DNA of 31,818 nucleotides, taken from positions 1-31,818 of the forward strand of contig CALIFM010000185.1 of NCBI GenBank assembly GCA_938021685.1, given 5' to 3'. Positions 2,868 to 31,655 of this stretch are shown piece after piece (the stretch's first letter is position 1; each line of letters opens with the position of its first letter). Source of the DNA: an uncultured Gammaproteobacteria bacterium. GTDB lineage: Bacteria; Pseudomonadota; Gammaproteobacteria; Arenicellales; Poriferihabitantaceae. The translations under genes and the position numbers were made by a program. The notes beneath the pieces are model-generated. The model was not told the DNA's origin and ran no database searches. It saw nothing but the letters and a program-made list of their open reading frames with translations.

Positions 2868-2928
2868 AAATAAACGCTGTGTGAAAAATCGCCTATACTT
2901 ATAGGCTGGATATTCAAATTAAAGCCAC

Positions 2929-4053: not shown

Positions 4054-4076
4054 TAGTTACACGGTTGGGTAATACA

Positions 4077-14201: not shown

Positions 14202-14222
14202 CAATAGGACTAACTTAAATCA

Positions 14223-15347: not shown

Positions 15348-15362
15348 TTAGGCAATTAGGTA

Positions 15363-16010
15363 TTATCCTACTGGGTCGTCGCTAAGAAAATCATATCCTA
15401 GCTGCTTCATCAAATCAGCATTTAGGCTTTGCTTAATGATGTCCTGTTCTTGCTGGTTGAGTTGCGGCAATTCAGTGACCTGCTGATAGTCTTTCTTTTG
15501 CTCGCCAAAGCCATTCACATAGCGCTCAAAAGGCTTGAAGTCCGTCTGTGGTGTGTTTTCGCCCAGCTCAATTTGTAACTTAGCAAATATATCGGCTTGG
15601 TCGGCGGCGAGCTCTTCAGCCTTGATGACCATACCATGCGGTACTTCTTCTAATAAGCGCAGATAGGCGTGGTATTTTTGATTCCACATTTGCAGCACGT
15701 TTTCATAATCTTCAATTGAGTGCTGCAAGAAAAATACAAATGGTAGCTTTTGCAGCATCGGCATATGCTGGTTATAGGGATCACGGTGCATCGCTTTTAG
15801 CCAAGAGTAGGGGTTGCGCACAGTGACCACTACCAAAGTTTGAGATAAATCACGCTTGCGCCATTCTTTCTGCTGCGGTGCAAGGCGGTGTTTCCAACCT
15901 AAAAAGCCATAGTCAAGCAGACGCTGAGAGAAGTTTTGCTGGATAAGCCCTGCGGCGGCGTTACTGGCGGTGTGGCGCTCGCCAAAAATTTTGATTTGCT
16001 CGATTCCCAT
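15363..16010 (-). CDS. Sulfotransferase-like protein (short P-loop fold)
   Basis: KIFGERHTASN (5'-PSB-like), GWKH, VTVRNPYSWLKAM (3'-PB-like), IKAEEL. Confidence 0.62.
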   Translation of the reverse strand: MGIEQIKIFGERHTASNAAAGLIQQNFSQRLLDYGFLGWKHRLAPQQKEWRKRDLSQTLVVVTVRNPYSWLKAMHRDPYNQHMPMLQKLPFVFFLQHSIEDYENVLQMWNQKYHAYLRLLEEVPHGMVIKAEELAADQADIFAKLQIELGENTPQTDFKPFERYVNGFGEQKKDYQQVTELPQLNQQEQDIIKQSLNADLMKQLGYDFLSDDPVG

Positions 16011-16027
16011 AACCGTATTGTAGTCGA

Positions 16028-17146
16028 TTAAGCGCGCAAGTCGGGGCGGCCAATTTGGCGGAGCATCAAATAAATATGCTGCGTTTTGTAGGCTAGAGAG
16101 CGCCGCAAAAAAAAGCGCATAATCCAGCGCGAGCGCAAACTAGGATATTGATTGCCTGCAAGGCTGCTGTGGACTATCTTTAATGTGAGTGTAGACAAAG
16201 CACTTAGTTTATAAGCGTTGAATGCAGCAGGTGGTGTTTGCCCAAACAGGCTGTGCGACAATTGCATCGCCAGTAGCGTGGGTTGCAGCAAGCCAGTTTT
16301 TTTAAGCTCATTTGCCAGTGCTTGCCAGTCGAAGCCTGTTTCGTGTGCAACCGTCGCTGCATTGTGCCAATCAAGCAGCCATTTAAGGCGGCCCCACATC
16401 GCCATGCTGCCATGAATGGGTAGATAGCGTAGATACAGAGGTAGTGAAAAGGTGGTGTAATCATGGCCGTGTAGCTGTACGGTGCTTAATGCAGCGCTGG
16501 CCTTTGCAAAATCAATATTGTAAGCATGCTTGTTCTTATCAAGCCGCCAATGCAGTTCCACTTCAACATGTGGCTTTTGGGGCGACAATAACACTTTGTC
16601 TTTGCGCACTTGTAAAGTTTCACGCCGCTGCTTAGTCTTTTGGGCGGTGATCTGTGTACCAATGGCGGTGTATCCAGCATCAATCAAAGCAGCTTCAGTG
16701 CGCTCTATATCATCAATGGCTACCCATATATCCAAATCTTTGCTATATCGACTAGAGCTGGATGCGCTCAATTGCTGTGACAATAATATCCCTTTGAATG
16801 GGATATAAACGATTCCGTGCTCACCTAATACTTGGTCGAGATGCTGCAATGTGGCTTGTTGTGCCAGTAGCTTAAATTGCATTTCGTGAAATTGCCGTTT
16901 TAAGGGCTGTATCAAGGCCTTAGGCAAGTGTTGAGATTGATCTTTAACCGCAAACCAAAACGGAATTTGCAAGTGATGCCAACGCAGCGCTTGCAATACT
17001 TCATCAGTGTCAAAGGCGGCTAGCTTTTCGAGCAGCGCAGAGAGATTGTCAGTGGTTGAAGCTTTTATGTTGACCGTAATTACCCTGCAAATCAGTGGCA
17101 GCGGGCCAGTGATAAGTTGTGAAGCTTGGGTGTTTTGCTTGGGCAC
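16028..17146 (-). CDS. Uncharacterised nucleotidyltransferase family protein (NTP_transf_5-like)
   Basis: YIPFKGILLSQQL, RYSKDLDIWV (DxD), EVELHWRL, HGSMAMWGRLKWLLDW. Confidence 0.82.
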   Translation of the reverse strand: MPKQNTQASQLITGPLPLICRVITVNIKASTTDNLSALLEKLAAFDTDEVLQALRWHHLQIPFWFAVKDQSQHLPKALIQPLKRQFHEMQFKLLAQQATLQHLDQVLGEHGIVYIPFKGILLSQQLSASSSSRYSKDLDIWVAIDDIERTEAALIDAGYTAIGTQITAQKTKQRRETLQVRKDKVLLSPQKPHVEVELHWRLDKNKHAYNIDFAKASAALSTVQLHGHDYTTFSLPLYLRYLPIHGSMAMWGRLKWLLDWHNAATVAHETGFDWQALANELKKTGLLQPTLLAMQLSHSLFGQTPPAAFNAYKLSALSTLTLKIVHSSLAGNQYPSLRSRWIMRFFLRRSLAYKTQHIYLMLRQIGRPDLRA

Positions 17147-17188
17147 TTTGTCGATGTAATTTAGGGCGATGATTTAATAGTGAAATGC

Positions 17189-18091
17189 CTAAGCAAGCTG
17201 CACATCAAAGTCTAATTTTGCAAGTTTTTTTGCAATTGGCTGCATGCCTAGATAGCGCGCTAAAAATATGTTTTGTGGGCATTGCACGTTCACATTTACG
17301 GTAGAAAATGCCGAAAATAAGCCGCTGGCACCTTGCTCGCTGAGGTATTGCTCGGCAGAATGATGAGTTTGAATTACTTCAAATATATCACTTAGCCAAG
17401 GCCGTTTTTGTTCACGCGGGTGGGGCAAATAGTTAACCGGTTGGTCTTTAAAATAATCCCTTAGTTTTTGTCGATAATGTGCTTCGTTAATGAGGGCGTC
17501 TTCAATCAGCGGTTGACCAATATAAACCAATTTTCCTGACTTAAGTGCAGTGACAGGGTAGTGTAAGTTATGATGGCGAAAACGGTCGCGTACTTGCAAT
17601 TGCTCGCCTCGGTAATTAGTGTCAAACAAGCCGCTTCGATAAAACCCCGCTGCCCATTTGGCCCACTCTTTTAAACGGTAGCGTTTTAGCATCGACTCCA
17701 TGCGCAAGTAATGGTTGAGGCCATCTTCCCACAGCTCCACTCGCTCTGGTCCTGCGTGATCGATAATAAAGCGAGTTATAGGTGTGTAATTGGCAGTTAA
17801 TATAAAGCGACAATTCGGGTGTTGAGCAATGAGATTTTTAATCAACATCGCCACACGTTCGTAGTAAGCGCGGTTGTTTGCGATAGAAAGCAGTGGTCGG
17901 CTTTGCTCAGTGCCAATCTTATGAATGGTATGGGTTAGCGCGTCGATACCGGCTTTTTCCAATGCGCCGTTGTTGCGGTAGTCAATTGCTGCCACCACTT
18001 GCCGAGGATTATGCTTTAGTAAAGCCAGCAGATGGGTACCCATTGGTACAATCACAACCGGTGCTGTTGTGGCGGCTTCGGTGTTTTTCAT
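17189..18091 (-). CDS. Sialyl/nonulosonyl-transferase-like glycosyltransferase (GT38/GT52/GT80-type motifs)
   Basis: ELWEDGLNHY (E-D-G motif), YIGQPL, YLPHPRE (HP motif), SAFSTV; directly downstream of neuB. Confidence 0.68.
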   Translation of the reverse strand: MKNTEAATTAPVVIVPMGTHLLALLKHNPRQVVAAIDYRNNGALEKAGIDALTHTIHKIGTEQSRPLLSIANNRAYYERVAMLIKNLIAQHPNCRFILTANYTPITRFIIDHAGPERVELWEDGLNHYLRMESMLKRYRLKEWAKWAAGFYRSGLFDTNYRGEQLQVRDRFRHHNLHYPVTALKSGKLVYIGQPLIEDALINEAHYRQKLRDYFKDQPVNYLPHPREQKRPWLSDIFEVIQTHHSAEQYLSEQGASGLFSAFSTVNVNVQCPQNIFLARYLGMQPIAKKLAKLDFDVQLA

Positions 18092-18131
18092 TACTAAGTT
18101 TTGAATGCAGCCTAAGCTTGCTTAGCTGTTT

Positions 18132-20396
18132 TCATGCAATCAACTGTGCCGCCATATTGGGCTCCAAGTGCTCAAAGGCTTGCCAAAAGCCTTCGCCACG
18201 GTTTTTATGTCCCTGCCAAATTTCAGGAATGAACATCACATTGGGCACGTGTTGTGCCAAGCTCTGGCCTAATTGCAAAAAATCCACGTTGCCTTCGCCC
18301 ATTTGTACGCCTTCGCCGCTATCGCCGAGGGCATCAGAAATATGCAGATGGGCAGTGTAAGGACCAACGGCATCAATAAACTCATTTAAAGACCAGCCAT
18401 AATAATTGCAGGCCATCATAGAGTGAGAGATGTCTAAGCAAATGCGCATTTTATTCTGCTTACAAAATTGCACGATCTCGTTTGGGTCGACAAATAAGTT
18501 GTGGTAGCGTTGGCCGCCGAAATGCCATGGGAAAGGCGGCATTGTTTGGACAATCACCTCCACCCCTTCTTGGTCTACTTGGCCAAGTTGCTTAGCAATT
18601 TGCTGATAAAGGGCGGGGCGCTCATCGGCGGCCATGAAACTTTTTTCAGTGAAACCACCTGCGTTGAGCACGATTACGGGCCGTTTAGTGGCAGGGAAAT
18701 AGCTTTTTAACTTTTGTGTTACTGCGATAGTTTGCTGCAAATTAGCGCGTGAGGTTTTCAAATAGCTTTTATCTTTCGAAGCTAAGTCAATTATATGGTC
18801 ACCAGCAAACAGCTCGGGTGCATGCACGGCTAAGCCCAGGCCTTGTGGCTCATCAAACACGCTGTCTATATCGACTTCTAAGTCTTGATAGCTTAAGTGA
18901 AACTCGACAAAATCTAGATTCGATAAATCAGATAGCTTGGCATAATCGTGGTAGCGCACTGGGATGCCGAAAGGGCGGTCGAAGTAATAATTACGTGCTT
19001 CAGTGATCGCGCCGTCGATGTCTGTTTGAAAGAAAAAGTCACCAGCATCAATGTCGCGCACTGCTGCTTTGCCAAGCAGGTCAGGTAGTAAATAAGGCTG
19101 TAAGCCTTGGCCTGGACTTTTGATTTCAATCATCTCGCGGGTGATACGCTCGCCTTTGGTAATCGTTGTTTTAGCAATCAAGCTTTTTGCCAAGGTTTCG
19201 CGATTCATCATCTCGCCTTGGCTGAGGCTGCGTTCAGATGCGTTGCCCAAGGCGGTCTCGATATTGCGAATTGATTGCACCATTTGCGCAAACTCATTTG
19301 GTAAGAGACTCACTTTGTGATCGTTGCCCTCCATGCCTTTGTCTAAGGTGAAATGTTTTTCAATCACGCGTGCACCCATGGCGACAGCTGCCACTGAAGT
19401 ATCAACTCCTAATTCATGGCCTGAATACCCAACTAGGCCGCCGCCGATTTGCTTTAAGCGCTCAAGATAGCGCAGATTAACGTCTTTTAAAGGTGCAGGA
19501 TAAGTTGAATTGCAATGCAACAGCACGAACTGCGTTGCGTGCTGATTGAGAAAATCTACCGATTGTATAATTTCAGTTTCGGTACACATGCCCGTGGAGC
19601 AAAGCAAAGGCTTGTTCGTTTCCGCCATCGCCTTTAGCAAGGGCAGATTGGTAAAGTCTGCCGATGCCACTTTGTAAGCGGGCATGCCGTAACCCTCTAG
19701 CACCGCGAGTGAAGTCTGATCCCATGGAGTGCATAGCGGAGTGACGCCTAAAGATTTGCAGTAATCGAAAGCTTCGATCAACTCGTCGTTGCTTAGCTGA
19801 AATTTCTCTAGTAAGTCAAAGACATATTGCGCGCCGAGATCAGCCGAATCATCACGAGTTTGGCCTTGGTTTTTATATACGCTGGCCATGTCACGCATTT
19901 GAAATTTTACGCAATCGGCGTTCGCAGCAGCAGCAGCATCCACTAGTTCTTTGGCATGTTTTAGACTGCCGTTGTGGTTGTTACCAAGCTCAGCAACGAT
20001 GTAGGTGGGTGTGGTTTGACTTAGCAAATGGCCATCAATGCTAATGCCTTCAAGGCCTTTTATAGCAATGGCTTTAAGCCGGTTTCCGGTATCCACCAAC
20101 GGCAGTAAATTGAACGAATCCTTGAAGCTCATGGCCAATGTGGCCGTAGAGCTATCAACCAGGCAGGCGGTAAACTGAGTATTCATCGCCTCGCTAACGG
20201 CGATGCTTAAGTCAGTTTGTTTGCTGTTAGTCAGCCACCGCCTGAAGTCACCATCGCTGAGTACACCGACTAGACAGCGATTGTTGTCAACAACAAACAC
20301 CGTACCAGATTTGTTCGCATCAATTTTCAGCAGGCAATCTGCCAGCGGAGAGGAATTGAGGACCAGATAAGCGTCTAAGTCAGAGATGATTTGCAT
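18132..20396 (-). CDS. neuB: Multidomain nonulosonate synthase: CBS pair + NeuB + SAF + xylose-isomerase/AP-endonuclease-2-like TIM barrel
   Basis: CBS: VGVLSDGDFRRWL; NeuB: YIVAELGNNHNG, VKFQ, KVASAD, LLHCNSTYPAP, GYSGHE, IEKHFTLD, DHKVSL; SAF: KSPGQGL; TIM barrel: VEFH, CLDISH, HLHISD, FIPEIW. Confidence 0.9.
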   Translation of the reverse strand: MQIISDLDAYLVLNSSPLADCLLKIDANKSGTVFVVDNNRCLVGVLSDGDFRRWLTNSKQTDLSIAVSEAMNTQFTACLVDSSTATLAMSFKDSFNLLPLVDTGNRLKAIAIKGLEGISIDGHLLSQTTPTYIVAELGNNHNGSLKHAKELVDAAAAANADCVKFQMRDMASVYKNQGQTRDDSADLGAQYVFDLLEKFQLSNDELIEAFDYCKSLGVTPLCTPWDQTSLAVLEGYGMPAYKVASADFTNLPLLKAMAETNKPLLCSTGMCTETEIIQSVDFLNQHATQFVLLHCNSTYPAPLKDVNLRYLERLKQIGGGLVGYSGHELGVDTSVAAVAMGARVIEKHFTLDKGMEGNDHKVSLLPNEFAQMVQSIRNIETALGNASERSLSQGEMMNRETLAKSLIAKTTITKGERITREMIEIKSPGQGLQPYLLPDLLGKAAVRDIDAGDFFFQTDIDGAITEARNYYFDRPFGIPVRYHDYAKLSDLSNLDFVEFHLSYQDLEVDIDSVFDEPQGLGLAVHAPELFAGDHIIDLASKDKSYLKTSRANLQQTIAVTQKLKSYFPATKRPVIVLNAGGFTEKSFMAADERPALYQQIAKQLGQVDQEGVEVIVQTMPPFPWHFGGQRYHNLFVDPNEIVQFCKQNKMRICLDISHSMMACNYYGWSLNEFIDAVGPYTAHLHISDALGDSGEGVQMGEGNVDFLQLGQSLAQHVPNVMFIPEIWQGHKNRGEGFWQAFEHLEPNMAAQLIA

Positions 20397-20485
20397 GGTT
20401 TTTATCAGCTTAATTGAGCATCAGACAAGTTCTTAGCATACATGAGTATGGCCTCTGTGATGGCTTCGGTTAAAGCTGTTAGGTT

Positions 20486-21367
20486 TTATAGGCCCAACCA
20501 AGCACGTAAGCCGTGCTTTTTAGGGCGCTCTGCTGTATTTGATGGGCTTCGTTTTTTTGAAAGATTATCAGCTTGGCTAATTACCGGTGTCATTAGTGGC
20601 TCCCCGTTTAATAAGCGCTTAGGGTTGCTATAAAATAAGGTATTGGCGGCCTTAATGCCAAAGTGCTTACACACATAGTCATAGGCATTAGCTAAATTAG
20701 GTGAGCGTCCATCAACGCGGTGAGCATCTGAGGCCACAATATGCACGCAGCCGTTAGCTAACCAATGATTTGCTACTTCTTGAATAGGTGGCCCAAAACG
20801 ACCAGTTAAGCTCAGTGCGGTTAGCTGCGTTTTACAGCCCCATTCGATCCAGTCGTATAAAATTTTGGGGTCACGAGCCAAGTCACCATTGCGTTCAGGA
20901 TGGGCAATAACCGGTGTGATGCCCATATTAATACAAGTGCCCAAGATAGCCTCCACGCCGAGCGGCAGGTGTTGCTTAGGCAGCTCAATAAGCGCTGCTT
21001 TTTTTTGGTCAGCATAGGTTAAAACTTGGCCCTGTCTTATTTGTTCAGGTAGCTCAGGGGTGAGATGCAGCTCAGACCCTAAGTGCAAACGGAGAGGGAT
21101 TCTTTGTTCAGCCAGCTGTTCTTCTAATTTCTGCTTTGCCGTGATGATGGCATCGTAATAATTGCTAAAGGCGCCGTTGCCATGGTGAGGAGTCAGTACC
21201 ACATCCGTGACGCCACAATTGACAGAAACCTGCGCCATTTGCAAAGCCATGTCTATGCTGGTTGCGCCGTCATCAATGTCGGGCAGCATATGGTTGTGGC
21301 AATCAATCATGCGCACTGCATTGCTTACAGCATTACTGTTCGGATCATATAAAATTTCTTCGCTCAT
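20486..21367 (-). CDS. PHP-family tyrosine-protein phosphatase (CpsB/CapC/YwqE type)
   Basis: IDCHNHMLPDIDDGA, LTPHH, GSELH, IAHPERN, VASDAHR. Confidence 0.9.
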   Translation of the reverse strand: MSEEILYDPNSNAVSNAVRMIDCHNHMLPDIDDGATSIDMALQMAQVSVNCGVTDVVLTPHHGNGAFSNYYDAIITAKQKLEEQLAEQRIPLRLHLGSELHLTPELPEQIRQGQVLTYADQKKAALIELPKQHLPLGVEAILGTCINMGITPVIAHPERNGDLARDPKILYDWIEWGCKTQLTALSLTGRFGPPIQEVANHWLANGCVHIVASDAHRVDGRSPNLANAYDYVCKHFGIKAANTLFYSNPKRLLNGEPLMTPVISQADNLSKKRSPSNTAERPKKHGLRAWLGL

Positions 21368-21373
21368 CTGTTT

Positions 21374-22789
21374 TTAGTACGCCGTTTTGGTAATAAAACC
21401 TTTGAACACGGTAAGGATTATAATCTTAATATCAAGCCAAATTGACCAGTTACGGATATAAAAAATATCATGTTCAACACGTTGCTCGATGCTGGTGTTG
21501 CCGCGTAAGCCATTAATTTGTGCCCAGCCGGTGATGCCCGCTTTAACATAATGTTTTTGCATATACTCAGGCACAGTGTATTGGAATTTCTCAACAAAAA
21601 ATGGTCGTTCAGGGCGTGGGCCCACCACTGACATGTCTCCCATCAGCACATTAAAAAACTGTGGCAACTCATCCAGACTGGTGCGGCGTAAAAAACTACC
21701 AAATTGAGTGGCACGGTTTTCACCTTTTTTGGCCCAAACGGGACCGCTATTTTGCTCTATACTTATAGGCATAGATCGGAATTTAAGCATCGTAAAAGGC
21801 CGGCCATTCAATGTTAAGCGCTCTTGGCGAAACAGCACTGGACCGGGTGAGCTGAACTTGACCCCAATGGCAATCAGCAAGAGAAGCGGTGACAGTAATA
21901 TCAAAACAAGTAGTGCAAAGCTGCGATCCATCAGTGATTTCAGCCAGCGATCTGCTGAGCGTAGTGGTTTTACTGATAGGCTAAGCATAGGTAAGTCAGC
22001 GCGGCGTTCTAACTCTGGGCGCAATATCGGCAGAAAGCTAAAATCAGGGAAGTAGCTAATTTGAATTAAGTTAGATTTGAAATGGCTGATAATATCGCGC
22101 ACACTGTTGTTGTCCAATTGTGCCCCCACTAACCATAATTGTTGAGTATTAGCGTCACTGATAAATGCATCTATCTTTTTCAGTTGGGCGGCATTGCTAG
22201 TTTTCTTTGGGCCCTTTTTACCTTGCCAATCCCAGCGACGTACGCTGCGGTAAGCATATGGGGCTTGATCGACTAGGCGATCCACTGTGGTGTTAAACTT
22301 GGGGCCGGTTCCAATGGCCAATACATCCAATTTAGATGCTGCATGGCTGGTGTCTAAGCGGGCTTTTTGGTCTAGGCCAATACGCCAGATCAAGCTAAAT
22401 AAATAGCTTAGGAAGATGGACACTAAGAACCAAGTGCGGGAGTAGGTATAATTGGTTTTTGACACCATGGCGATTAAAGCAATGGAAGAAATAATCACAA
22501 ACCAGCTAATGGACAAGCGACGCAGCACGTTCCACGAAAAAATGGAGCGACCGCCGTCATATAAACCAAAGGCTGCGGTACATAGCAGCACCACTAATGA
22601 CACCACTATGATAGGCGTGATATAGGCCTTAAGGATTAGGGGTTCGCTGCTGGTCAAAGCGATGACAGAAAGCACGCCCCAGCAAATTAAAGTTGTTGTC
22701 AGCACATCAAGAATGGCTAACAAGTACAAATTAGATGTGCGTTGTAGCCTGTAGGTAAGACCGGCAGAAGAATCAGTTTCTGGCAGCAT
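21374..22789 (-). CDS. wcaJ: Undecaprenyl-phosphate glucose phosphotransferase (priming glycosyltransferase)
   Basis: Four N-terminal TMs; SPGPVLFRQER, KFRSM, FLRRTSLDELPQFFNVLMGDMSVVGPRPER, VKAGITGWAQING, DIFYIRNWSIWLD. Confidence 0.9.
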   Translation of the reverse strand: MLPETDSSAGLTYRLQRTSNLYLLAILDVLTTTLICWGVLSVIALTSSEPLILKAYITPIIVVSLVVLLCTAAFGLYDGGRSIFSWNVLRRLSISWFVIISSIALIAMVSKTNYTYSRTWFLVSIFLSYLFSLIWRIGLDQKARLDTSHAASKLDVLAIGTGPKFNTTVDRLVDQAPYAYRSVRRWDWQGKKGPKKTSNAAQLKKIDAFISDANTQQLWLVGAQLDNNSVRDIISHFKSNLIQISYFPDFSFLPILRPELERRADLPMLSLSVKPLRSADRWLKSLMDRSFALLVLILLSPLLLLIAIGVKFSSPGPVLFRQERLTLNGRPFTMLKFRSMPISIEQNSGPVWAKKGENRATQFGSFLRRTSLDELPQFFNVLMGDMSVVGPRPERPFFVEKFQYTVPEYMQKHYVKAGITGWAQINGLRGNTSIEQRVEHDIFYIRNWSIWLDIKIIILTVFKGFITKTAY

Positions 22790-22942
22790 AGCTTGCGAAG
22801 AATAAAGCCTTTATTTTGATCAGCACTAAATTACATAATGCACGGTGATCTATTAATAGAATTGGGCTTTTATTCTAGCACAAGTATCAATGAGTTATTA
22901 TCAAGCCCTTATATTGTTTTATTCTATGATACGGGCTAGTGT

Positions 22943-24382
22943 TTACGAGCGCCCATAAAGATCTTCAAAGCGTACAATATCGTCTTCACCAAGGTAGGCG
23001 CCTGATTGTACTTCGATGAGTTCTAGTGGAATTTTGCCGGGATTTTCTAATGAGTGGGTTGTGCCAACTGGAATATAGACGGATTCATTTTCGCCGAGTA
23101 GCCGTTCTTCATCTCCTACGCGTACTTTTGCTGTCCCATTAACCACGACCCAATGTTCCGCACGGTGGTGGTGCATTTGTACGGATAGTTTTGCGCCAGC
23201 CCGTACAGAGATACGCTTAACTTGAAAGCGATCACCGCTGTCCATTGAGTCGTAGTGGCCCCAAGGCCGGTATACCACACGGTGGTGGGTTGCTTCGGTG
23301 CGTGTTTGCTGGTTAAGCCAATCAACCACCTTTTTGACTTCATCAGCATGCGGTTTGCTGGCGACGAGTAAGGCGTCCTTGGTATCAACGACTACAAGGT
23401 CGTCCACCCCTAGCATAGCTACCAATTTGTCTTCTGTACGCACTAAGTTGTTGTGACTGTCTACACATAGAGTGTCGCCTGAAGTAGCATTACCGTCATT
23501 ATCTTTAGGTAAGACTGAAGCTAAAGCGGCCCAGCCGCCGACATCGCTCCAACTGGCTTGCATTGGCATCACAAACGCTTTCTGGGTGTGCTCCATCACC
23601 GCATAATCAATCGAATCGCTAGGGCATTTTTCAAAGGCATCAACGCCAATCCGGATAAACTCAAGATCGATGCTTTGGTCTTGCCAAGCTTGCTTGCAAC
23701 AATTCACAATGTCATTATTGTGTTTGCTGACTTCAGCCAAAAAATCGTTTGCATAAAACATAAACAAGCCGCTGTTCCAAAGATAGTCACCGCTGGCAAG
23801 ATATTTTTCAGCTGTTTTTTGTTCGGGCTTTTCTACAAATTTCTCAACTGCATTGAGCGCACCCTGCTTAAGTTTTTTGGTTTTAATATAACCATAGCCG
23901 GTAGCAGGGCGGTCAGGGTTAATGCCAAATGTCACCATTTGACCAGCCTTAATTTGGCCAGCGGCGGTTTGTACAGTTTGACTGAAGCTTGTTTCATTAG
24001 CGATATGGTGGTCGGCGGGTGATACCAGCAGTAAAGGGTTGTCATGCAGCTCCAATGCGCGCAAAGCTGCTAAGCAAATTGCCGGTGCAGTGTTGCGACC
24101 AAAAGGCTCGAGTATTAAGCCGCTATGCACGCAGTCAAGTTGGCGAAGTTGTTCGGCAGCAATAAAGCGATGCTCTTCATTGCAAACCACAATGGGTGTA
24201 TATAGAGCTAAATTTGCGATACGTTGCACTGTTTGTTGTAGCAAGGTGTCGGTGTGCTGCTTGTTATTGCCGCTTGTGGTTAGCGGCAAAAATTGTTTGG
24301 GGTACATGCGTCGTGAAACAGGCCATAAACGTGTGCCAGAGCCGCCGGCGATAATAACGGGCTGTATAGGGCTTTTTTTCAT
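22943..24382 (-). CDS. manC: Mannose-1-phosphate guanylyltransferase / mannose-6-phosphate isomerase (start probably ATG 24382; ORF extends to 24409)
   Basis: PVIIAGGSGTRLWPVSR..YPKQF, EPFGRNTAPA, FVEKP, WNSGLF, SIDYAVME, WSDVG, cupin RPWG, QMHHHRAEHWVVV, IEVQSG. Confidence 0.95.
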   Translation of the reverse strand: MKKSPIQPVIIAGGSGTRLWPVSRRMYPKQFLPLTTSGNNKQHTDTLLQQTVQRIANLALYTPIVVCNEEHRFIAAEQLRQLDCVHSGLILEPFGRNTAPAICLAALRALELHDNPLLLVSPADHHIANETSFSQTVQTAAGQIKAGQMVTFGINPDRPATGYGYIKTKKLKQGALNAVEKFVEKPEQKTAEKYLASGDYLWNSGLFMFYANDFLAEVSKHNNDIVNCCKQAWQDQSIDLEFIRIGVDAFEKCPSDSIDYAVMEHTQKAFVMPMQASWSDVGGWAALASVLPKDNDGNATSGDTLCVDSHNNLVRTEDKLVAMLGVDDLVVVDTKDALLVASKPHADEVKKVVDWLNQQTRTEATHHRVVYRPWGHYDSMDSGDRFQVKRISVRAGAKLSVQMHHHRAEHWVVVNGTAKVRVGDEERLLGENESVYIPVGTTHSLENPGKIPLELIEVQSGAYLGEDDIVRFEDLYGRS

Positions 24383-24564
24383 CGCTATTGTGTTGTTTGT
24401 GATATGCACTAAAATTTGATTAAAGCGTGACTTTAACCAATTACCGAGTAAACAGCCACTGCTCTGATAGCTAAAGCTTCAGGCGCAATGCTGGAACAAC
24501 AAGATCATATCTTGCTTGTAGGTGCTCTATTTTTGAGGCTCAGTCCAATGGTGTGCACGGTTGC

Positions 24565-24594
24565 TTGACGCAAGTGCAATGGCCCATATAGAAT
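24565..24594 (+). promoter_or_regulatory. Putative sigma70 promoter for the GT9 gene
   Basis: TTGACG (24565-24570), 18-nt spacer, TAGAAT (24589-24594); AGAGG ribosome-binding site at 24622-24626 before TTG 24633. Confidence 0.5.
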
Positions 24595-24632
24595 TTAGTT
24601 TTAAAGCTAATTGATACACAAAGAGGCCACCA

Positions 24633-25757
24633 TTGGAGCAGCAATTAGCAGCACAAACTCAGCACTTGCAACATCGCTTGCAAAACCTAAGCAGTAAAAT
24701 TCGCCGGCAATTAGCATTGCCGCAACCGATGCGCGATGCCGGAATGATCACCTTTTTGCGTCAAGAGATTAATGTCTACCAGTTTGCGTTAGCGCAGCTT
24801 GAGCAGTTAAATGGTACACGAGTGGCATTGGCAGACCCATTAGGTTATGGCAGAGCGAAAGACATGTTGTCACCGCTTGCTAGCGGTAACCGCAGTAAAG
24901 GAAGTGCGGTGAGTGCCAACAATAGTGATGTGTTGCGTATTGGTGTGTTTGGGGGGTTAGGCGATGTTTTGTGCGTGACGCCGGCTTTGCAGGCACTAAA
25001 AAAAGCCAGGCCACAGCGTGAATTGCATTTACAGCTAAATGCAGAGCCGCACTTAGCTATATTTAAAAACAACCCCGATATTGACCACATAAGCGTGCTA
25101 AAACGCGGTAACAACAAAAACCAAAAGAAGCTAGATATCGAAGTATCAGTGGGTTTTCTCGGTACAGATATTCACTATCGTGAGCATGCGGCCTTTTTGC
25201 TAGCTGCAGCCTTAGGGGTGAGCATTGATAGCGAGATACCACGCTACTTCATAGGTGAAAGCGAGCAAGCTGCAGCCCAACAAGCACTAAAAGGTATCGG
25301 CTCATTGGTGGTTATTTCGCCTACATCACGAGCGCCGGCTAATCAAAACTGGCCCTTGCAGCGCTGGCAATCCTTGATGGCGTTGTTTCCTGATGTGACC
25401 TTTGCGCAAGTTGGCCTGCCAGATGAAGAAGTTATTGAGGGGGCTTTAGATTGGCGTACCGCGCAAGATGTGCGGTCATCGGTAGCTAAATTGGCAGTCG
25501 CCGGTGCTTATGTGGGAATGGACACGTTTTGGGCACACGCTGCGGCGGCAGTCAGCACCCCTGCCGTAGTGTTTTTTGGCGGCACTCATCCCAGTGTGTT
25601 TGGTTATCCTGGGCACGCTAAATTGTATAAGCACTTACGTTGCTCGCCTTGTCATCATACCTTGGCAGGGCGCCACTGCCCATACAACACTGAATGCATT
25701 AATGACATCACGGTGGATGAGGCTGCGCAAGCATTGCGTGAACAGCTGGCTGTTTAG
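24633..25757 (+). CDS. GT9-family glycosyltransferase with ~100-aa N-terminal extension
   Basis: GGLGDVLCVTPALQALK, WPLQRWQ, MDTFWAHAAAAVSTPAVVFFGGT, C-terminal CSPC..C..C; TTG start with AGAGG RBS. Confidence 0.85.
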   Translation: MEQQLAAQTQHLQHRLQNLSSKIRRQLALPQPMRDAGMITFLRQEINVYQFALAQLEQLNGTRVALADPLGYGRAKDMLSPLASGNRSKGSAVSANNSDVLRIGVFGGLGDVLCVTPALQALKKARPQRELHLQLNAEPHLAIFKNNPDIDHISVLKRGNNKNQKKLDIEVSVGFLGTDIHYREHAAFLLAAALGVSIDSEIPRYFIGESEQAAAQQALKGIGSLVVISPTSRAPANQNWPLQRWQSLMALFPDVTFAQVGLPDEEVIEGALDWRTAQDVRSSVAKLAVAGAYVGMDTFWAHAAAAVSTPAVVFFGGTHPSVFGYPGHAKLYKHLRCSPCHHTLAGRHCPYNTECINDITVDEAAQALREQLAV

Positions 25758-25831
25758 TGCTTATGCCTGCTGCTGCGGCCCTTTGTTAAGGCTAGTTTAA
25801 TACCAATTGCAGTGCTAGAATTAGTATTCTG

Positions 25832-25859
25832 AGGCGAATATCGATTCGCCTTTTCTTCT
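25832..25859 (+). terminator. Rho-independent terminator after the GT9 gene
   Basis: AGGCGAAT-ATCG-ATTCGCCT perfect 8-bp stem followed by TTTCTTCT. Confidence 0.7.
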
Positions 25860-25909
25860 AACGTAATGGCAGCTGCAGTGATTTTATTTGAGCTACCATA
25901 GCAAAAAGA

Positions 25910-27073
25910 ATGCTAATACCACGCATGCCTAGCTCTTCATTGATTGATTCGACTTTGCTAATTTGCATGCAATGCAAAACACCTTTGCAGGCTGCCCACC
26001 AGGCTTACCAGTGTAGTGAATGCGAGCGACTATATGATGCAGGTAAGGCACAAGATATACCATTGCCAATTGCCTTTTTTGAGGAGCCTAAACAGGTCTA
26101 TGCTGATGCTTATTTAGGTTTTTATCGCGCCTACAAGCATTTTGATCAAAAGGCCGTTCAACTGACCGAAGGCTTGAAAAAAAGTGGGCGAAAAAAGGAA
26201 TTACTGCCTGTATTAAAGGCATTCAAAGACAATCAAAAGTATTTTACAAGATTCGCAGAGGCATTAGCGCCCAGTGTAGATTTGCCTACCTTGTTAGAAA
26301 AAGCAGGTAAAAACGCGGGACAAAAATATGGTTATGACTTTAATTATCTTGAGCGTGATTGGTCACAGCAACCCCGAGCGCAGCTTGAGATTAGCAATTT
26401 GATGTCGATTGTTCAAAAAGCGGTTAAGCACTGCTCAGGCGAACATGCAGTGGTACTTGGCGCGGGCATGGGTCGCTTGGCAACGGAACTAAAAGCACAT
26501 CACAAGCAGGTTACGGCCATCGAAAACTCGCTTGGGCAGATTGCCCAGTTTTATGCTTTGTTACAGCAGCCTAACCATTTTTGGCGAGTGAACACAATCA
26601 ACACGCGCAAGGACAACGATTTGCTGAAAAAAGTAAACTTGCAGATACCTAAAGCGTTGCTGGCGGATGCAAAGTCAGTGGATTATATATGGGCTGATGC
26701 TTGCAACAGTCCTTTAGCCGATCGCTCGGTGGATGTGTTGTATTCAATTTATTTTTCAGATGTCGTGCCATTAACTAAGTTGCTTGCTGAAAGTAAGCGC
26801 TTGCTTACTGAGGGCGGTTGTTTTGTGCATCTTGGCCCATTGCATTATCATTTTTCTGACATCACTCAACATTACAGCCTAGAGACTTTTTGTGCACAGC
26901 TTGTGCAGCATGGTTTTGTATTGCAGCATCAATCTGAGCATGAGCCTGTCAATATAGATGATGAGGGCTTGCAACGCTCGCAGCAGTATTTCAATGCGCT
27001 GATCGTGGCAAAGTATGATTCTGCCCAAGACCAACATGCCGAAGATAAAAGCTCGGTGACTGAATCGAGCTAA
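25910..27073 (+). CDS. Class I SAM-dependent methyltransferase, N2227/carnosine N-methyltransferase-like, with N-terminal CxxC..CxxC Zn ribbon
   Basis: CMQC...CSEC; YLERDWS; motif I VVLGAGMGRLATEL; YSIYFSDV; GGCFVHLGPLHYHF. Confidence 0.7.
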   Translation: MLIPRMPSSSLIDSTLLICMQCKTPLQAAHQAYQCSECERLYDAGKAQDIPLPIAFFEEPKQVYADAYLGFYRAYKHFDQKAVQLTEGLKKSGRKKELLPVLKAFKDNQKYFTRFAEALAPSVDLPTLLEKAGKNAGQKYGYDFNYLERDWSQQPRAQLEISNLMSIVQKAVKHCSGEHAVVLGAGMGRLATELKAHHKQVTAIENSLGQIAQFYALLQQPNHFWRVNTINTRKDNDLLKKVNLQIPKALLADAKSVDYIWADACNSPLADRSVDVLYSIYFSDVVPLTKLLAESKRLLTEGGCFVHLGPLHYHFSDITQHYSLETFCAQLVQHGFVLQHQSEHEPVNIDDEGLQRSQQYFNALIVAKYDSAQDQHAEDKSSVTESS

Positions 27074-27078
27074 GCACG

Positions 27079-27831
27079 ATGCAAGGCTATATTTGGGATT
27101 CAGAATTTAGCACTAAGTTCGCTAAGCAATACTGGGAGCAACGCCCCTGTGTGTTTGATTATCCCGCTAAACAAGCGATTGCTAATTTAGATGAGTTGTT
27201 TCACGCAGTGGTCAACATGCCCAGCCGCGGCCCATCGGATCGTTTTTGGGTGGCCAAGAGCGTTCCACCGAAGCGCTACGATGATTTTCGTAATATTCAA
27301 GGAGAGGGCATTAATTTATTCGGCCCTAAAGCCGATGATGGAAATTTAATGGGCTTTTTTGAACGCATGAATGGCCGTCACTTTGGGTTTAATTCGCACA
27401 AACTTGGGGCAGGTTTACCAGTGATTGATGAACGCATGAAAGCAATCGTGCTAGGCTTACAGCAAGCGGGTTTGCCGCTTAAACCGCAGCAACGCGGCTG
27501 GGTAAGCGACACGTTTTTTGGCACCTATCACGCCACACCCTTTGGCATCCATCGTGACCCTGCTAGTGTGTTTTCGCTGACCTTGTTGGGTGAGCGTACT
27601 TATTATACTTGGCCGATGGACTACTTCCCCCTTGGTCATAAAGATTTGCAATGCCCAGATAACAATGCGATTAAGCGCCATATCCCGAATGCAGAGGTGT
27701 TTAAGCTTAGCCCCGGGAAAGTATTTTACTGGCCGTCTAATCGTTGGCATGTGGCCACGTCGAATGGCCAGCCTACAGCGGTGGTGCAGATGAGCACTTA
27801 CTTTGATTCTAAAGACGTTAATCAAGCTTAA
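27079..27831 (+). CDS. JmjC/cupin-type Fe(II)/2-oxoglutarate oxygenase
   Basis: QYWEQRPCVF start typical of Cupin_4/ROXA-like proteins; TPFGIHRD (HxD); LSPGKVFYWPSNRWHVA (distal His). Confidence 0.75.
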   Translation: MQGYIWDSEFSTKFAKQYWEQRPCVFDYPAKQAIANLDELFHAVVNMPSRGPSDRFWVAKSVPPKRYDDFRNIQGEGINLFGPKADDGNLMGFFERMNGRHFGFNSHKLGAGLPVIDERMKAIVLGLQQAGLPLKPQQRGWVSDTFFGTYHATPFGIHRDPASVFSLTLLGERTYYTWPMDYFPLGHKDLQCPDNNAIKRHIPNAEVFKLSPGKVFYWPSNRWHVATSNGQPTAVVQMSTYFDSKDVNQA

Positions 27832-27842
27832 GAGTAGCGTAG

Positions 27843-28751
27843 ATGTATCAATATAATGCCTTTGGTTTAAAAATCAGTTGTCAGTGGCCATTGTTTCAAT
27901 TGCCAACAGTTAATTTTGCTAGCAGTGAAGCACAAGTGACGATTGCGCGAGGTCGTGTAGATGATACTCGCTTTAATCAAACCGAAAAAGGTGAGCATTT
28001 TCAAGTATATGAGCAAGGCCGCCTTGCTTTTATGCAAGTGCGCGAGGTCGCCAACTTCTTGATTGAAAACGGCACGACGATTACTGTGGATGTGGATCAA
28101 GAAGCGGTCATGCAAACCGTTAATTTATATTTGCTTGGTTCGGGTTTGGGTACGATTTTGCATCAACGTGGTAGCCTGCCTTTGCACGGCAATGGTATCA
28201 ATATTGATGGGCATGCGGTGATTGTGACCGCGCATAGCGGAATAGGAAAATCGACCTTGGCCAGCGAGTTTTATCGCAGGGGTTATTCTTTATTGGCGGA
28301 TGACGTTTGTGCGGTTAGCGCTGAAAACGAAGTGCAGCCAAGCTATCCATTCTTGAAGCTGTGGCAAGAAGCGATTGACCGTTTAGATCTGCCCAAGGCT
28401 GATTTAATTCAGATCATGGCGCAAAAAGAAAAATTCTATGTGCCTTTAGGTGTGCAATTTAATACAAGCTCATTGCCTCTTAAATCAATTTACATATTGA
28501 TGCGGGGCGATATAGACTCACCGGAAATGAAGCCCTTAAAGGGGGTGAATAAACTGTTGATGTTACGTCCCCAAATTTACCGTTTGCATTATTTACGTTG
28601 CTTGGTTAAAGGTGCGCCAGCAATGGACCGGATGTCAGAGCGGCTAGGAAATATCCCTGTTTTTCATGTCGTGAGGCCGGTGGAAGGGATGCATGTTGAG
28701 CAAATTGCCGATATGATTTTGGCCAATGAAGCTGACAGCGGTTCAACCTAA
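27843..28751 (+). CDS. HPr-kinase-like kinase 1 (type found in phosphorylated lasso-peptide clusters)
   Basis: YNAFGLKI start, LYLLGSGLGTILHQRGSLPLHG, Walker A AHSGIGKST, LLADDV, PFLKLW. Confidence 0.82.
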   Translation: MYQYNAFGLKISCQWPLFQLPTVNFASSEAQVTIARGRVDDTRFNQTEKGEHFQVYEQGRLAFMQVREVANFLIENGTTITVDVDQEAVMQTVNLYLLGSGLGTILHQRGSLPLHGNGINIDGHAVIVTAHSGIGKSTLASEFYRRGYSLLADDVCAVSAENEVQPSYPFLKLWQEAIDRLDLPKADLIQIMAQKEKFYVPLGVQFNTSSLPLKSIYILMRGDIDSPEMKPLKGVNKLLMLRPQIYRLHYLRCLVKGAPAMDRMSERLGNIPVFHVVRPVEGMHVEQIADMILANEADSGST

Positions 28752-28768
28752 ACACCGCGTAAGCATTT

Positions 28769-29734
28769 ATGTCTAATTGTTACACTGCCTTTGGCTTATG
28801 CTTGCACTCAGATCTTGAACTGGTGCCTTTACAGGCTTGTCAAGACGCTGCTATTAACTTACCCGTTATACGTATCGAACAAGGTGAAGTAAGCAACACG
28901 GGTTTAAAAAATACACAGTCTAGCTTGGTGTATTGTGATGTGGTGGCTAACACGGTTTGGTTGCGTATTCCAAATGTTGCACGGTTTTTAATCGAGAATG
29001 GTGACCATGTAACTTATGAAGCAGAAAGGATCATTGCCTCGTTTGATGATGAAGATGGCAGGATGGTTAGCAATGAAGTTCAGTTAGTGCAAATAGCGCT
29101 GTATATCCAATCGCATTGTGTTCCTTATATTTGTTTGCAGCGTGGGCATCTTGTGTTACGCGGTAGCGCGGTGCGTTTTGGTGAGCAGTGTGCAGTTTTT
29201 TGTGGACCCGCTTCAAGTGGTAAAACTACTTATGCGGCGGCCCTTTATAACCGAGGCTTTGATGTAATAAGTGATGAGGTATGCGTGTTTAATGAGCACA
29301 ACGAAGTGTTGGCAGGCTATACTTATTTAAAGGTGTGGCACGATGTTTTGTCTTACTTGCGCCTTGAGCCCACTGATTTTTCGCCGCTATTTCCTGGTAT
29401 CAACAAATATGTTTTCCCGCTAGAAGCAGCCCAAGCAACTACAGCATTGCCGGTTAGCGCAATTTATTTGCTTTATCAGGACTACATTAAAGAGTGGCAT
29501 ACCAAGCCAGTGCGTGGTTTGGGAAAATTGAATTATTTAAAATCACCTAGCCATGCTTACCGCCCTGGGGTGCGTTCTAAGTTAGGCTTACCAGATCTAA
29601 TTGTTCAGCAAACAAGGTTGATGCAAGCCGTGAGCATAATTAAAACCAAGCGGCCCAAGAGTATTCGTGCAATTCGTATGTCACAGCAGCTACAGTTCTT
29701 TATCGATGACATGGGCTTGGGTGTTGATGACTAA
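28769..29734 (+). CDS. HPr-kinase-like kinase 2, with altered catalytic motifs
   Basis: YTAFGLCL start, ARFLIENG, LVLRGSAV (His to Arg), Walker A GPASSGKTT, VISDEV (DD to DE), YLKVW. Confidence 0.78.
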   Translation: MSNCYTAFGLCLHSDLELVPLQACQDAAINLPVIRIEQGEVSNTGLKNTQSSLVYCDVVANTVWLRIPNVARFLIENGDHVTYEAERIIASFDDEDGRMVSNEVQLVQIALYIQSHCVPYICLQRGHLVLRGSAVRFGEQCAVFCGPASSGKTTYAAALYNRGFDVISDEVCVFNEHNEVLAGYTYLKVWHDVLSYLRLEPTDFSPLFPGINKYVFPLEAAQATTALPVSAIYLLYQDYIKEWHTKPVRGLGKLNYLKSPSHAYRPGVRSKLGLPDLIVQQTRLMQAVSIIKTKRPKSIRAIRMSQQLQFFIDDMGLGVDD

Positions 29735-30683
29735 AGAAATAAATACTCAATATGACCAAGCGCGCCTTGTCTTGCTAGCGTCTTACCCGAAGTCTGGTAA
29801 CACATGGCTGCGCAGTTTTTTAAGCGCGCTCAATGTGTACGACCCATTGGCGGAACAACAGTTTACTGAGCAAGCCGCAAGTGATCCGCTTGACGATGAG
29901 ATTGACATGAACAAGATTCATCTTGGGACCCAACTATTTTCTCGTGAAGAAATTGAAGTACATGCGGGTTTTGACACCACAGATTTGACCGAAGCGCAGT
30001 TAGCCCATCTTCGAGTTGTTACTAATCGTCATTATGCCCAAGCTATTCCGATGGGCCAGGTTGGATACATGAAGGTGCATGATGCCTATACCGTGTTCGA
30101 TAACGGTGCATGCTTGTTTGACAAGCAATATGTCAAAGGTGTGGTTTATATCGTGCGTAACCCGTTGGATGTGGTGATTTCATACGCCAATCAATCCAGC
30201 TTTAGCATTGATGCAAGCATCGCCCATTTTGGCAGTGACCAAACATTGGGGGTAGACGAAAAAGCATATAGTGCCGAGAGTTCGGCGCGCCGCTGGATTT
30301 CGTCCTGGTCTGGTCATGTGCAGAGCTGGACAAGCGGTCATCCTTTGCCTTATCTGTTGGTGCGCTATGAGGATATGAAAAAACGAGGCATCGACACTTT
30401 TATGCAGGTCGTGCACTTTTTAAACTTAACTGCCAGCGAAGAAGAAGTGGCAAAAGCTTTGGACAAAGTGGCGTTTGAAAAATTCGCAAAACAGGAGAAG
30501 GAAAAACCTTTTGTGGAATCGGAATCGAATCCTGACGGATTTTTTCGCAAAGGCATCGTAGGGGATTGGCGTGAAGTGTTAAGTAGCGCGCAAATCAGCC
30601 AAGTCATCAGTGATCATGGTGAAATGATGCATCAGCTGGGCTATGTGGATGAATACGGTAAGCCTACACAGCTGATTTGTTAA
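29727..30683 (+). CDS. PAPS-dependent sulfotransferase (Sulfotransfer_1 type); start reassigned from 29667 to ATG 29727
   Basis: LASYPKSGNTWLR, KVHDAY, YIVRNPLDVVISY, WSGHVQSW, VRYEDM, FFRKGIVGDW; ATGACTAA overlap with kinase 2. Confidence 0.9.
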   Translation: MTKEINTQYDQARLVLLASYPKSGNTWLRSFLSALNVYDPLAEQQFTEQAASDPLDDEIDMNKIHLGTQLFSREEIEVHAGFDTTDLTEAQLAHLRVVTNRHYAQAIPMGQVGYMKVHDAYTVFDNGACLFDKQYVKGVVYIVRNPLDVVISYANQSSFSIDASIAHFGSDQTLGVDEKAYSAESSARRWISSWSGHVQSWTSGHPLPYLLVRYEDMKKRGIDTFMQVVHFLNLTASEEEVAKALDKVAFEKFAKQEKEKPFVESESNPDGFFRKGIVGDWREVLSSAQISQVISDHGEMMHQLGYVDEYGKPTQLIC

Positions 30684-30776
30684 TTTTAAAGCAGCTTTTT
30701 TGTTAATTCCAATTGATCTTGTACATGAAGGCATATTCAAGATCAGGTTAAGTATGAATAATGATGTTATAGGCTT

Positions 30777-31655
30777 TTATATTTCATGGCCTACATTTTC
30801 ACTTGTTTTAGCTTTGCGCCCATTTTCTCTTTTTAAAGTTTGTGCTGCATGCGGGCAAGTGCCACTATCAAGTGGTAATTCATCAAAGCTTGGTTTTTCA
30901 GGTAAAACGAGAGGGCATTTGTTCGGCGGCTCATTATTAGTAATAGGTAATGAATATTGATTCCATTCTGATTCTCCTATTTGGTAGTGTCCTAATAAGT
31001 GCGAATGCTGGATCTTGTCATACTCGTCGATGTTTGATCTAATCTTGTTTCTTATATTAATGCCCTTTTTCTCAAAGGCGCTTGCGACGATATCAAATCT
31101 TTTTCTTGGATTTATAACAAGTACTAAGGTATCGCAAAGGTTTCTGCTTTTTCTCAGTCGGTGTGCTGGATGGCTGACATTTATAAAGAGGGGTGTCTGT
31201 TGAAAGCAAAAACTCCAGAAAGGATCACTGGGGTCTGTGGGTAAATCATCAGGCCACCGTTGGGTGTCAGAATCGATAAGGTACTGCATAGCGCCGAAAG
31301 CAATGTCTTCATAAGCAGATTTATCATACTGTTTATTATTATTAGATTCAAAAATGACTAACAACGGTTCAGCTGAATTAACGTCTCCAGCCCATTTTGA
31401 GCAGCGTTTAAGATATAATTCTATGCCTTTTTTTAATTTTGAAAAGTTATGGTTACCTGATGGATTTAACTCAATGGGAAGAAAGCATAAAAGCTCTCTG
31501 GCACAAGCATTACGAGAAAAAACGCATGGAAAAGGTTTTTCTGAGCCTGTTAATAAAGATATAATGTTCTCGATGTGGTGAGCACACCATGCGTTTTTAG
31601 TGTTTTCGCCGTGGTCAAAAGTATTTTTAGATAGTTCAGTTTGTAGTAGCAACAT
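30777..31655 (-). CDS. YqcI/YcgG-family protein (family includes heme-dependent guanidine N-hydroxylases)
   Basis: FPCVFSRNA, EPLLVIF, WPDDLPTDPSDPFWSFCF, LFINVSHPAH..RKSRNL, LVINPRKRFD, EWNQY. Confidence 0.85.
   Translation of the reverse strand: MLLLQTELSKNTFDHGENTKNAWCAHHIENIISLLTGSEKPFPCVFSRNACARELLCFLPIELNPSGNHNFSKLKKGIELYLKRCSKWAGDVNSAEPLLVIFESNNNKQYDKSAYEDIAFGAMQYLIDSDTQRWPDDLPTDPSDPFWSFCFQQTPLFINVSHPAHRLRKSRNLCDTLVLVINPRKRFDIVASAFEKKGINIRNKIRSNIDEYDKIQHSHLLGHYQIGESEWNQYSLPITNNEPPNKCPLVLPEKPSFDELPLDSGTCPHAAQTLKRENGRKAKTSENVGHEI

Follow-up and report, generated by a model that had tools for sequence, protein, structure and literature searches.

A CARNMT1-family methyltransferase heading a five-gene operon in an uncultured gammaproteobacterium: a possible peptide histidine N-methyltransferase

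The window analyzed here (the whole stretch of 31,818 nucleotides on contig CALIFM010000185.1 from an uncultured gammaproteobacterium of the Poriferihabitantaceae) encodes at positions 25,910 to 27,073 a 387-residue S-adenosylmethionine (SAM)-dependent methyltransferase, whose membership in the CARNMT1/N2227 family is secure on sequence and predicted fold. Its gene opens an operon of five closely spaced genes. We consider it possible, at a little under an even chance, that the enzyme N-methylates a peptide histidine in a lasso-type pathway and heads a tailoring operon. Histidine N-methylation is familiar from ovothiol biosynthesis and from animals, where it occurs in anserine, actin, and zinc-finger proteins; among ribosomal natural products we know of it in thioamitides only, where it is carried out by an unrelated enzyme. 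New in this analysis are a form of the family that lacks a C-terminal tail and heads an operon of JmjC, kinase, and sulfotransferase genes, the direct lasso context of relatives in Legionellaceae, a Cys-His motif in clusters of Bacteroidota, and a recurring oxygenase partner. If this bacterial family of at least 267 sequence clusters has the proposed function, it would provide a new tailoring reaction, a genome-mining handle for lasso peptides and the Bacteroidota Cys-His peptides, and a bacterial model for peptide recognition by CARNMT1-type enzymes. The orphan five-enzyme operon would become a testable pathway. The gene and the elements of its product are as follows, conservation being counted in 120 bacterial relatives.

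25910..27073, forward strand: CARNMT1/CARME-family SAM methyltransferase, 387 residues, without PqqD-like tail (open reading frame, Pfam, profile, and AlphaFold2 model)
25964..26023, forward strand: predicted four-Cys zinc ribbon C19, C22, C35, C38, Trm112-like (cysteines kept in 106-108 of 120; three short strands in the model)
26087..26305, forward strand: N-terminal helical domain common to CARNMT1, residues 60-132 (long helices 60-89, 95-122, and 125-132 in the model)
26354..26362, forward strand: RDW motif R149, D150, W151, pairing with the RDW of CARNMT1 (D150 in 120/120, W151 in 119/120)
26459..26476, forward strand: SAM-binding GxGxGR, G184-R189, pairing with GAGLGR of CARNMT1 (G184 and R189 in 120/120)
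26750..26761, forward strand: Y281-F282-S283-D284, equivalent to Phe313 to Asp316 of CARNMT1 by profile-to-5yf0 alignment (D284 in 120/120, Y281 aromatic in 119/120)
26828..26854, forward strand: H307-LGPLHYH-F315, with H314 equivalent to His347 of CARNMT1 (H314 in 94/120, Y313 in 114/120, G309 and P310 in 120/120)

The reading frame is open and the sole long one at this place, with an alternative start possible at M6 (ATG at 25,925). The initial annotation, made from the sequence alone, had proposed a bacterial N2227/CARNMT1-like enzyme fused to a zinc ribbon on the basis of four motifs. All of these were located in the translation, namely RDWS at residues 149-152, GAGMGRLA at 184-191, GGCFVHLGPLHYHF at 302-315, and CMQC-x12-CSEC with the cysteines C19, C22, C35, and C38. 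The four cysteines, RDW, GxGxGR, D284, H307, and GPL show little or no variation across the 120 relatives, and as judged by alignment the motif matches to the CARNMT1 family exceed a chance likeness.

Evaluation against family models led to the same assignment. The best-scoring Pfam model was CARME (PF07942, formerly N2227) with E 7.9e-13 and 48.8 bits at a cut-off of 27, ahead of the generic Methyltransf_11 with 38.5 bits; in the five homologues tested, CARME likewise scored above its cut-off and above generic methyltransferase models. A word-indexed search with the methyltransferase returned five relatives only. A HMMER search with the alignment of these five recovered 267 representative clusters at E < 1e-30, of which 120 were used to build a family profile. 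Against human CARNMT1 (5yf0) this profile aligned with chain residues 33-361 at E 1.5e-31; its match to the yeast enzyme (5x62) had E 8e-14. A model calculated with AlphaFold2 on the family alignment reached a mean predicted local distance difference test score (pLDDT) of 93 and a predicted TM score (pTM) of 0.91. Comparison of the model with the Protein Data Bank (PDB) by Foldseek placed CARNMT1 entries and the yeast enzyme on ranks 1-8 (E 1e-16 to 4e-13; best 9.8e-17). The OvoA methyltransferase domain, OvoM, and OvsM came next, and all of these are imidazole N-methyltransferases. In VIA-align, superposition on CARNMT1 gave a Z score of 25.0 with 309 residues aligned (model residues 40-371) at a root-mean-square deviation of 3.8, compared with Z of about 19.5 for OvoM, OvsM, and OvoA and about 18-19 for generic class I methyltransferases. 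Owing to the Foldseek ranks and a Z of 25.0 against about 18 for generic folds, the relationship to CARNMT1 is clear. The outcome that had been named as speaking against the assignment, namely that a generic family of small-molecule or sugar O-methyltransferases would fit better, was looked for and not found. A special kinship to OvoM and OvsM beyond the generic methyltransferase fold was also considered and is unsupported, given Z of 19.5 against about 18-19.

CARNMT1 and yeast YNL092W (PDB 5YF0-5YF2, 5X62) share with the window protein the helical domain, the Rossmann core, RDW, GxGxGR, and the GPLxYHF loop. In contrast to them, the window protein is bacterial, is only about 16-18% identical, carries an additional N-terminal four-Cys ribbon, and shares its operon with genes for an oxygenase, kinases, and a sulfotransferase; its likely substrate would be a gene-encoded peptide rather than carnosine. 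OvoM, OvsM, and the OvoA C-terminal domain (PDB 9BXL, 9BXH, 8KHQ), next after CARNMT1 in similarity, are also class I imidazole-N methyltransferases, but they lack both the N-terminal helical domain and the ribbon and act on free amino acids (5-thio- and 5-selenohistidine, at N-pi). With respect to the ribbon, the likeness to Trm112 suggested by the initial annotation stood at the level of the family and not in the protein itself, in which Pfam Trm112p gave no match. The homologue P0004 matches Trm112p at 4.4e-6, and family-profile positions 3-50 match the Trm112-like structures 2kpi (2.5e-4) and 2hf1 (8.8e-4), supporting a Trm112-like ribbon for the family.

Next, the residues of the imidazole pocket were mapped by aligning the family profile to 5yf0 (chain number + 47) and by counting columns in the 120 relatives. 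In a quantum mechanics/molecular mechanics study of CARNMT1, Phe313, Asp316, His347, Tyr386, Tyr396, and Tyr398 were the key residues, with Asp316 fixing the N-epsilon2-H tautomer and thereby directing N-delta1 towards SAM (bioRxiv 10.1101/2024.07.18.604158). The equivalents with matching residues are:

Asp316 of CARNMT1: D284 (120/120 relatives)
Phe313 of CARNMT1: Y281 (Tyr or Phe in 118/120, aromatic in 119/120)
His347 of CARNMT1: H314 (94/120)
Tyr398 of CARNMT1: Y360 (Tyr or Phe in 109/120)

Conservation of the imidazole pocket, the absence of which had been named as a further sign against the assignment, was accordingly observed in the alignment for D284, H314, and Y281. Among the tyrosines contacting carnosine (Tyr386, Tyr396, and Tyr398) only Tyr398 is retained, as Y360. 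In the alignment, the window protein shares with CARNMT1 the side of the pocket that orients the imidazole, but not the side specific to carnosine.

The operon context is the second line of evidence. The methyltransferase is followed on the same strand by four genes with spacings of 5, 11, and 17 nt and a final overlap between kinase 2 and the sulfotransferase:

27079..27831, forward strand: JmjC-like cupin oxygenase, 5 nt past the methyltransferase stop (Pfam JmjC_2 E 1.3e-4, 21.9 bits with a cut-off of 22)
27843..28751, forward strand: HPrK-like kinase 1 (Pfam Hpr_kinase_C, 36.5 bits)
28769..29734, forward strand: HPrK-like kinase 2, a paralogue of kinase 1 with 29% identity
29667..30683, forward strand: sulfotransferase (Pfam Sulfotransfer_1 E 6.4e-27), start codon uncertain, the listed reading frame overlapping kinase 2

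These partner types resemble known tailoring sets of lasso peptides. Established lasso tailoring includes HPr-kinase homologues (ThcoK and SyanK) phosphorylating the C-terminal Ser of the precursor, the nucleotidyltransferase PsmN, and the Fe/2-oxoglutarate (Fe/2OG) hydroxylase CanE, and sulfotransferase genes flank lasso clusters as putative tailoring genes (PMC8498205). Kinase, nucleotidyltransferase, sulfotransferase, and oxygenase all recur around the window methyltransferase or its Legionellaceae relatives. The sole characterized lasso methyltransferase, StspM, targets the C-terminal carboxyl (PMC8498205) and is consequently an O-methyltransferase; it is set apart from the window enzyme by the reaction described and not by sequence comparison. 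A literature search returned no CARNMT1-type enzyme and no carnosine N-methyltransferase or N2227 protein tied to lasso peptides or to other peptides that are ribosomally made and modified after translation (RiPPs).

A direct link to lasso biosynthesis is found in two metagenome-assembled genomes (MAGs) of Legionellaceae, in which tail-less methyltransferases of 365 and 369 residues adjoin a lasso cyclase of the Asn-synthase type (loci L009 and L010). Locus L009 also holds an NTP_transf_5 nucleotidyltransferase, a 96-residue PqqD protein, and a Transglut_core3 (B2) protease. This nucleotidyltransferase is a homologue of the one encoded in the window (16028..17146, reverse strand; Pfam E 6.2e-39; about 9 kb off the methyltransferase and a possible distant partner), and in L009 it lies only about 2 kb from the methyltransferase with the lasso cyclase as the only gene between. 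It was the sole match when the proteins neighboring the window methyltransferase were compared by tblastn with 19 related loci. Beside the two Legionellaceae methyltransferases we observed small reading frames (L010:1431-1598, 55 residues, and L009:8714-8923, reverse strand, 69 residues). Both have a leader with the motif YxxPxL, a core with His in an E-x-H context, and a C-terminal Ser, the residue usually phosphorylated by lasso kinases of the HPrK type, and we read them as candidate lasso precursors. The same two MAGs contain further arrangements with other components, namely HPrK-like, sulfotransferase, and PqqD genes in a row on contig C196 of genome G441, and HPrK-like, PqqD, and B2 genes with a cyclase fragment in a row on contig C183 of genome G440. 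Kinase 1 of the window is 37% identical to the G441 kinase, and the window sulfotransferase is 39% identical to the G441 sulfotransferase preceding PqqD.

Lasso genes are present in the own genome as well, within an assembly of 316 contigs that is 90% complete. Contig C227 (6.2 kb; locus L030:1-4058) starts within a JmjC_2-like gene, the 5' part of which is not in the assembly, and continues with lasso-type genes:

1-433: JmjC_2-like paralogue, truncated by the contig start, 40% identical to the JmjC-like protein of the window
453-1040: B2
1098-2036: FGE-sulfatase-domain protein with an N-terminal hydrophobic segment, between B2 and cyclase
2103-4058: lasso cyclase, 651 residues, 34-35% identical to the Legionella cyclases

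Contig C83 opens with a 96-residue PqqD gene, one of two PqqD genes in the genome; the other is on contig C88, and the window has none. On C88 (L032:1056-5242) the 114-residue PqqD-family protein (4466-4810) lies among three paralogous small proteins of about 120-160 residues, which have in common an N-terminal signal-like segment '...SAPVVL..SLP.HAQA'. A search for precursors by YxxPxL leader motif and small reading frames gave nothing convincing in the window, C227, C83, and C88.

Extension of the analysis to the bacterial family showed that 85 of the 120 relatives carry a C-terminal tail of about 105-120 residues that is PqqD-like, the last 100 positions of the family profile matching PqqD (5sxy) and a lasso PqqD (B1) chaperone (9x90_B). 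On a FastTree phylogeny of 165 rows, the tail is absent from the window methyltransferase and 48 others and was gained or lost repeatedly (at least 16 changes). The window protein is nested within the tree of this family, sharing its ribbon and catalytic domain, and falls in a tail-less clade of ten with an SH-like support of 87. It differs from the tailed form by the missing tail of about 100 residues, by Asn348 and Ala363 where the family has His and Trp, and by an oxygenase partner of the JmjC-like instead of the aKG-HExxH-like kind. P0002 and P0003 are closest to it, with 46-49% identity, and P0002-P0004 together span 38-49%.

In Bacteroidota, a protein of about 400 residues is encoded beside the tailed form; this holds for 13 of the 19 genome loci and for four or more metagenome loci. 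This neighbor is a distant peptide beta-hydroxylase of the aKG-HExxH type (TIGR04267 at 31 bits with a cut-off of 40; structural TM of 0.74 in the Atlas). The same loci encode an ABC exporter with C39 peptidase, HlyD, and an aldo-keto-reductase-like protein, and they carry one to six small reading frames per cluster with double-glycine-type (GG) leaders. A Cys-His dipeptide, mostly as [A/D]CH[P/D], occurs in 24 of 25 unique GG-leader peptides from 13 distinct loci, while composition-preserving shuffles averaged 1.8 and reached at most 7; in this count, paralogous peptides within one locus are not independent. The dipeptide persists across the peptide families while the remaining sequence diverges. 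We regard these clusters as a candidate for an undescribed RiPP class. They comprise L003, L004, L008, L013, L015-L021, L038, L044, and L045 (e.g., L008:3693-5922 and L003:3229-3366). In the Cyclobacteriaceae locus L016, a tail-less methyltransferase occurs with a JmjC_2 protein.

The family is repeatedly paired with an oxygenase of the Fe/2OG type, drawn from three different oxygenase lineages: a JmjC-like protein in the window and also on C227, a JmjC_2 protein at L016, and an aKG-HExxH-like protein in the Bacteroidota loci. The JmjC-like protein of the window itself matched in only one other genome of 400 in the class, and it had no match in the three genomes holding L009, L010, and L016. 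In thioamitide biosynthesis, TsaG/ThoG bis-N-methylates a His that TsaJ/ThoJ then beta-hydroxylates; TsaG belongs to PF06325 and TsaJ to PF05721, and thioamitides are reported to be the only RiPPs with bis-N-methylated His (bioRxiv 10.1101/2020.12.17.423248). The likeness is a functional analogy, with a SAM methyltransferase and a Fe/2OG oxygenase acting on one His, and the families are unrelated to those of the window. Because the recurrent oxygenase pairing recalls TsaG and TsaJ and the operon partners are of lasso type, N-methylation of a peptide histidine is the favored function. The genomic contexts of relatives, RiPP-like in Bacteroidota and lasso-type in Legionellaceae, likewise lend support to the peptide acceptor suggested initially.

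The proposed pathway would proceed as follows. The substrate would be a lasso-type ribosomal peptide encoded elsewhere in the fragmented genome. After the example of CARNMT1, D284 would hold the N-epsilon2-H tautomer of the His side chain, H314 and Y281 would close over the imidazole ring, and the SAM methyl group would be transferred to N-delta1 (N-pi). The downstream genes would add hydroxyl, phosphate, and sulfate. We infer the peptide nature of the acceptor, histidine as the residue, the acceptor atom, the link to the lasso genes on C227 and C83, and the order relative to oxygenase, kinases, and sulfotransferase. A wider claim can be put forward only tentatively, namely that a CARNMT1-type enzyme N-methylates His of a lasso peptide or other RiPP and, with JmjC, two kinases, and a sulfotransferase, gives rise to a heavily decorated peptide, while the whole bacterial family would serve in His-directed RiPP tailoring, including the Bacteroidota Cys-His class.

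Several observations weigh against a lasso-peptide histidine as the target. No precursor gene, lasso cyclase, B1/PqqD, or B2 was found in the window, no overlaps of contig ends joining it to the lasso contigs were found, and the operon adjoins a polysaccharide locus. The methyltransferase ends at residue 387 without a PqqD-like tail. Legionella methyltransferases are only about 29% identical to it and belong to a different clade, and three gammaproteobacterial loci with the tailed form have no obvious RiPP context. Within the pocket, Tyr386 of CARNMT1 corresponds to N348 (His in 94/120 relatives) and Tyr396 to a Gln that is variable among relatives; because of these two replacements, the protein is a family member from which activity on carnosine is not expected. 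At position 363, the small clade of the window protein has Ala in place of the Trp found in 88/120 relatives. Since the lid positions 348 and 363 are both replaced in this clade, it may act on a different substrate than the other members of the family, whose bacterial representatives are, to our knowledge, biochemically uncharacterized.

Each of the four rival explanations fits fewer observations than the favored one. The first retains the peptide substrate with an acceptor other than a His ring nitrogen, i.e., a Cys thiol, an N-terminal amine, Lys, or a carboxylate. In the Bacteroidota Cys-His precursors Cys is as conserved as His, the peptide N-terminal methyltransferase NTMT1 and other N-/O-methyltransferases score Z 17-18, and the two differing lid positions would also be compatible with such a change. 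However, the equivalents of Asp316, His347, and Phe313 that are retained are those orienting an imidazole, and the solved structures closest to the protein in profile and fold comparisons are without exception those of imidazole N-methyltransferases, which renders this option unlikely.

A second explanation assigns the operon to the adjacent exopolysaccharide/nonulosonate locus, with methylation, hydroxylation, phosphorylation, and sulfation of a glycan or a glycan-linked group. The upstream region indeed carries on the opposite strand manC, wcaJ, a cps4B-like gene, a multi-domain NeuB (neuB), and GT52-like, NTP_transf_5, and GT4 genes, and a glycosyltransferase gene lies just upstream of the operon on its own strand:

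24633..25757, forward strand: GT9 (heptosyltransferase)-like gene, operon link uncertain (Pfam Glyco_transf_9 E 1.3e-8)
25831..25852, forward strand: terminator-like hairpin between the GT9-like gene and the methyltransferase operon (consensus scan only)

Reduced guanine-plus-cytosine (GC) content spans the entire 14-31 kb stretch, and the kinases weakly match the HprK-related kinase A/B models (TIGR04352/TIGR04355), which we take to describe cassettes of polysaccharide regions. The kinases reach 26-33 bits in these models, far short of the cut-off of 200, the hairpin sets the operon apart from the GT9-like gene, homologues of four operon or locus components occur in lasso clusters, and the methyltransferase has the fold and pocket of an imidazole N-methyltransferase rather than those of a sugar O-methyltransferase. 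A role in the glycan locus is thus quite unlikely.

A free small imidazole compound, such as an ovothiol-like thiol or a carnosine-like His dipeptide, is a distinctly unlikely substrate. Structurally characterized relatives do include small-molecule enzymes (CARNMT1 for carnosine, OvoM/OvsM for 5-thio-/5-selenohistidine), the protein weakly matches the NCBIfam model of the OvoA C-terminal domain (E 3.7e-6), and the missing PqqD-like tail would suit a free substrate. On the other hand, no OvoA, EgtB, or carnosine-synthase-like gene is adjacent in the window, the co-operonic kinases and sulfotransferase have homologues within lasso clusters, and the Z of about 19 for OvoM/OvsM barely exceeds that of generic methyltransferases.

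The gene is single-copy in its own genome and sporadic beyond it. A query with the protein in 40 related genomes gave a lone weak match in G026 (E 1.1e-6, 24% identity) and no clear orthologue, and among 399 other scored genomes of the class the family profile at E <= 1e-15 detected a member in 4. Genome and metagenome scans with a 6-sequence alignment returned no member of its own clade. The single copy and the sporadic occurrence point to an accessory gene. That the target is a histidine of a cellular protein with no link to a natural product is very improbable, for although CARNMT1 also methylates proteins and Trm112-type ribbons go with protein and RNA methyltransferases, the very sporadic distribution is at odds with a housekeeping target and the gene is co-operonic with tailoring-type enzymes.

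Further observations concern the surroundings of the operon. Over window positions 14000-31000 the GC content is 0.43-0.47, about 3-5 points below the first 12 kb (0.48-0.51), in keeping with an accessory region of polysaccharide and tailoring genes, possibly of horizontal origin. On contig C158 of the Legionellaceae MAG G441 (L060:5604-8961), a 386-residue HPrK-like gene has a gene of the GT9 heptosyltransferase family about 1.2 kb upstream of it, an arrangement echoing the GT9-like gene upstream of the window operon. This GT9-like gene was also considered as a counterpart of the conserved Bacteroidota neighbor f1 and was rejected (hmmsearch E 1.4). Convergent to the sulfotransferase, positions 30777-31655 on the reverse strand encode a YqcI/YcgG-family protein (Pfam E 4.8e-46) with a weak match (E 5e-11, well below cut-off) to GntA, the haem-dependent N-hydroxylase of guanitoxin biosynthesis; whether to count it with the tailoring set is uncertain. 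At 8354-9625 on the reverse strand, the window encodes a bacterial protein matching Pfam MATCAP (microtubule-associated tyrosine carboxypeptidase, formerly a DUF) at E 4e-125.

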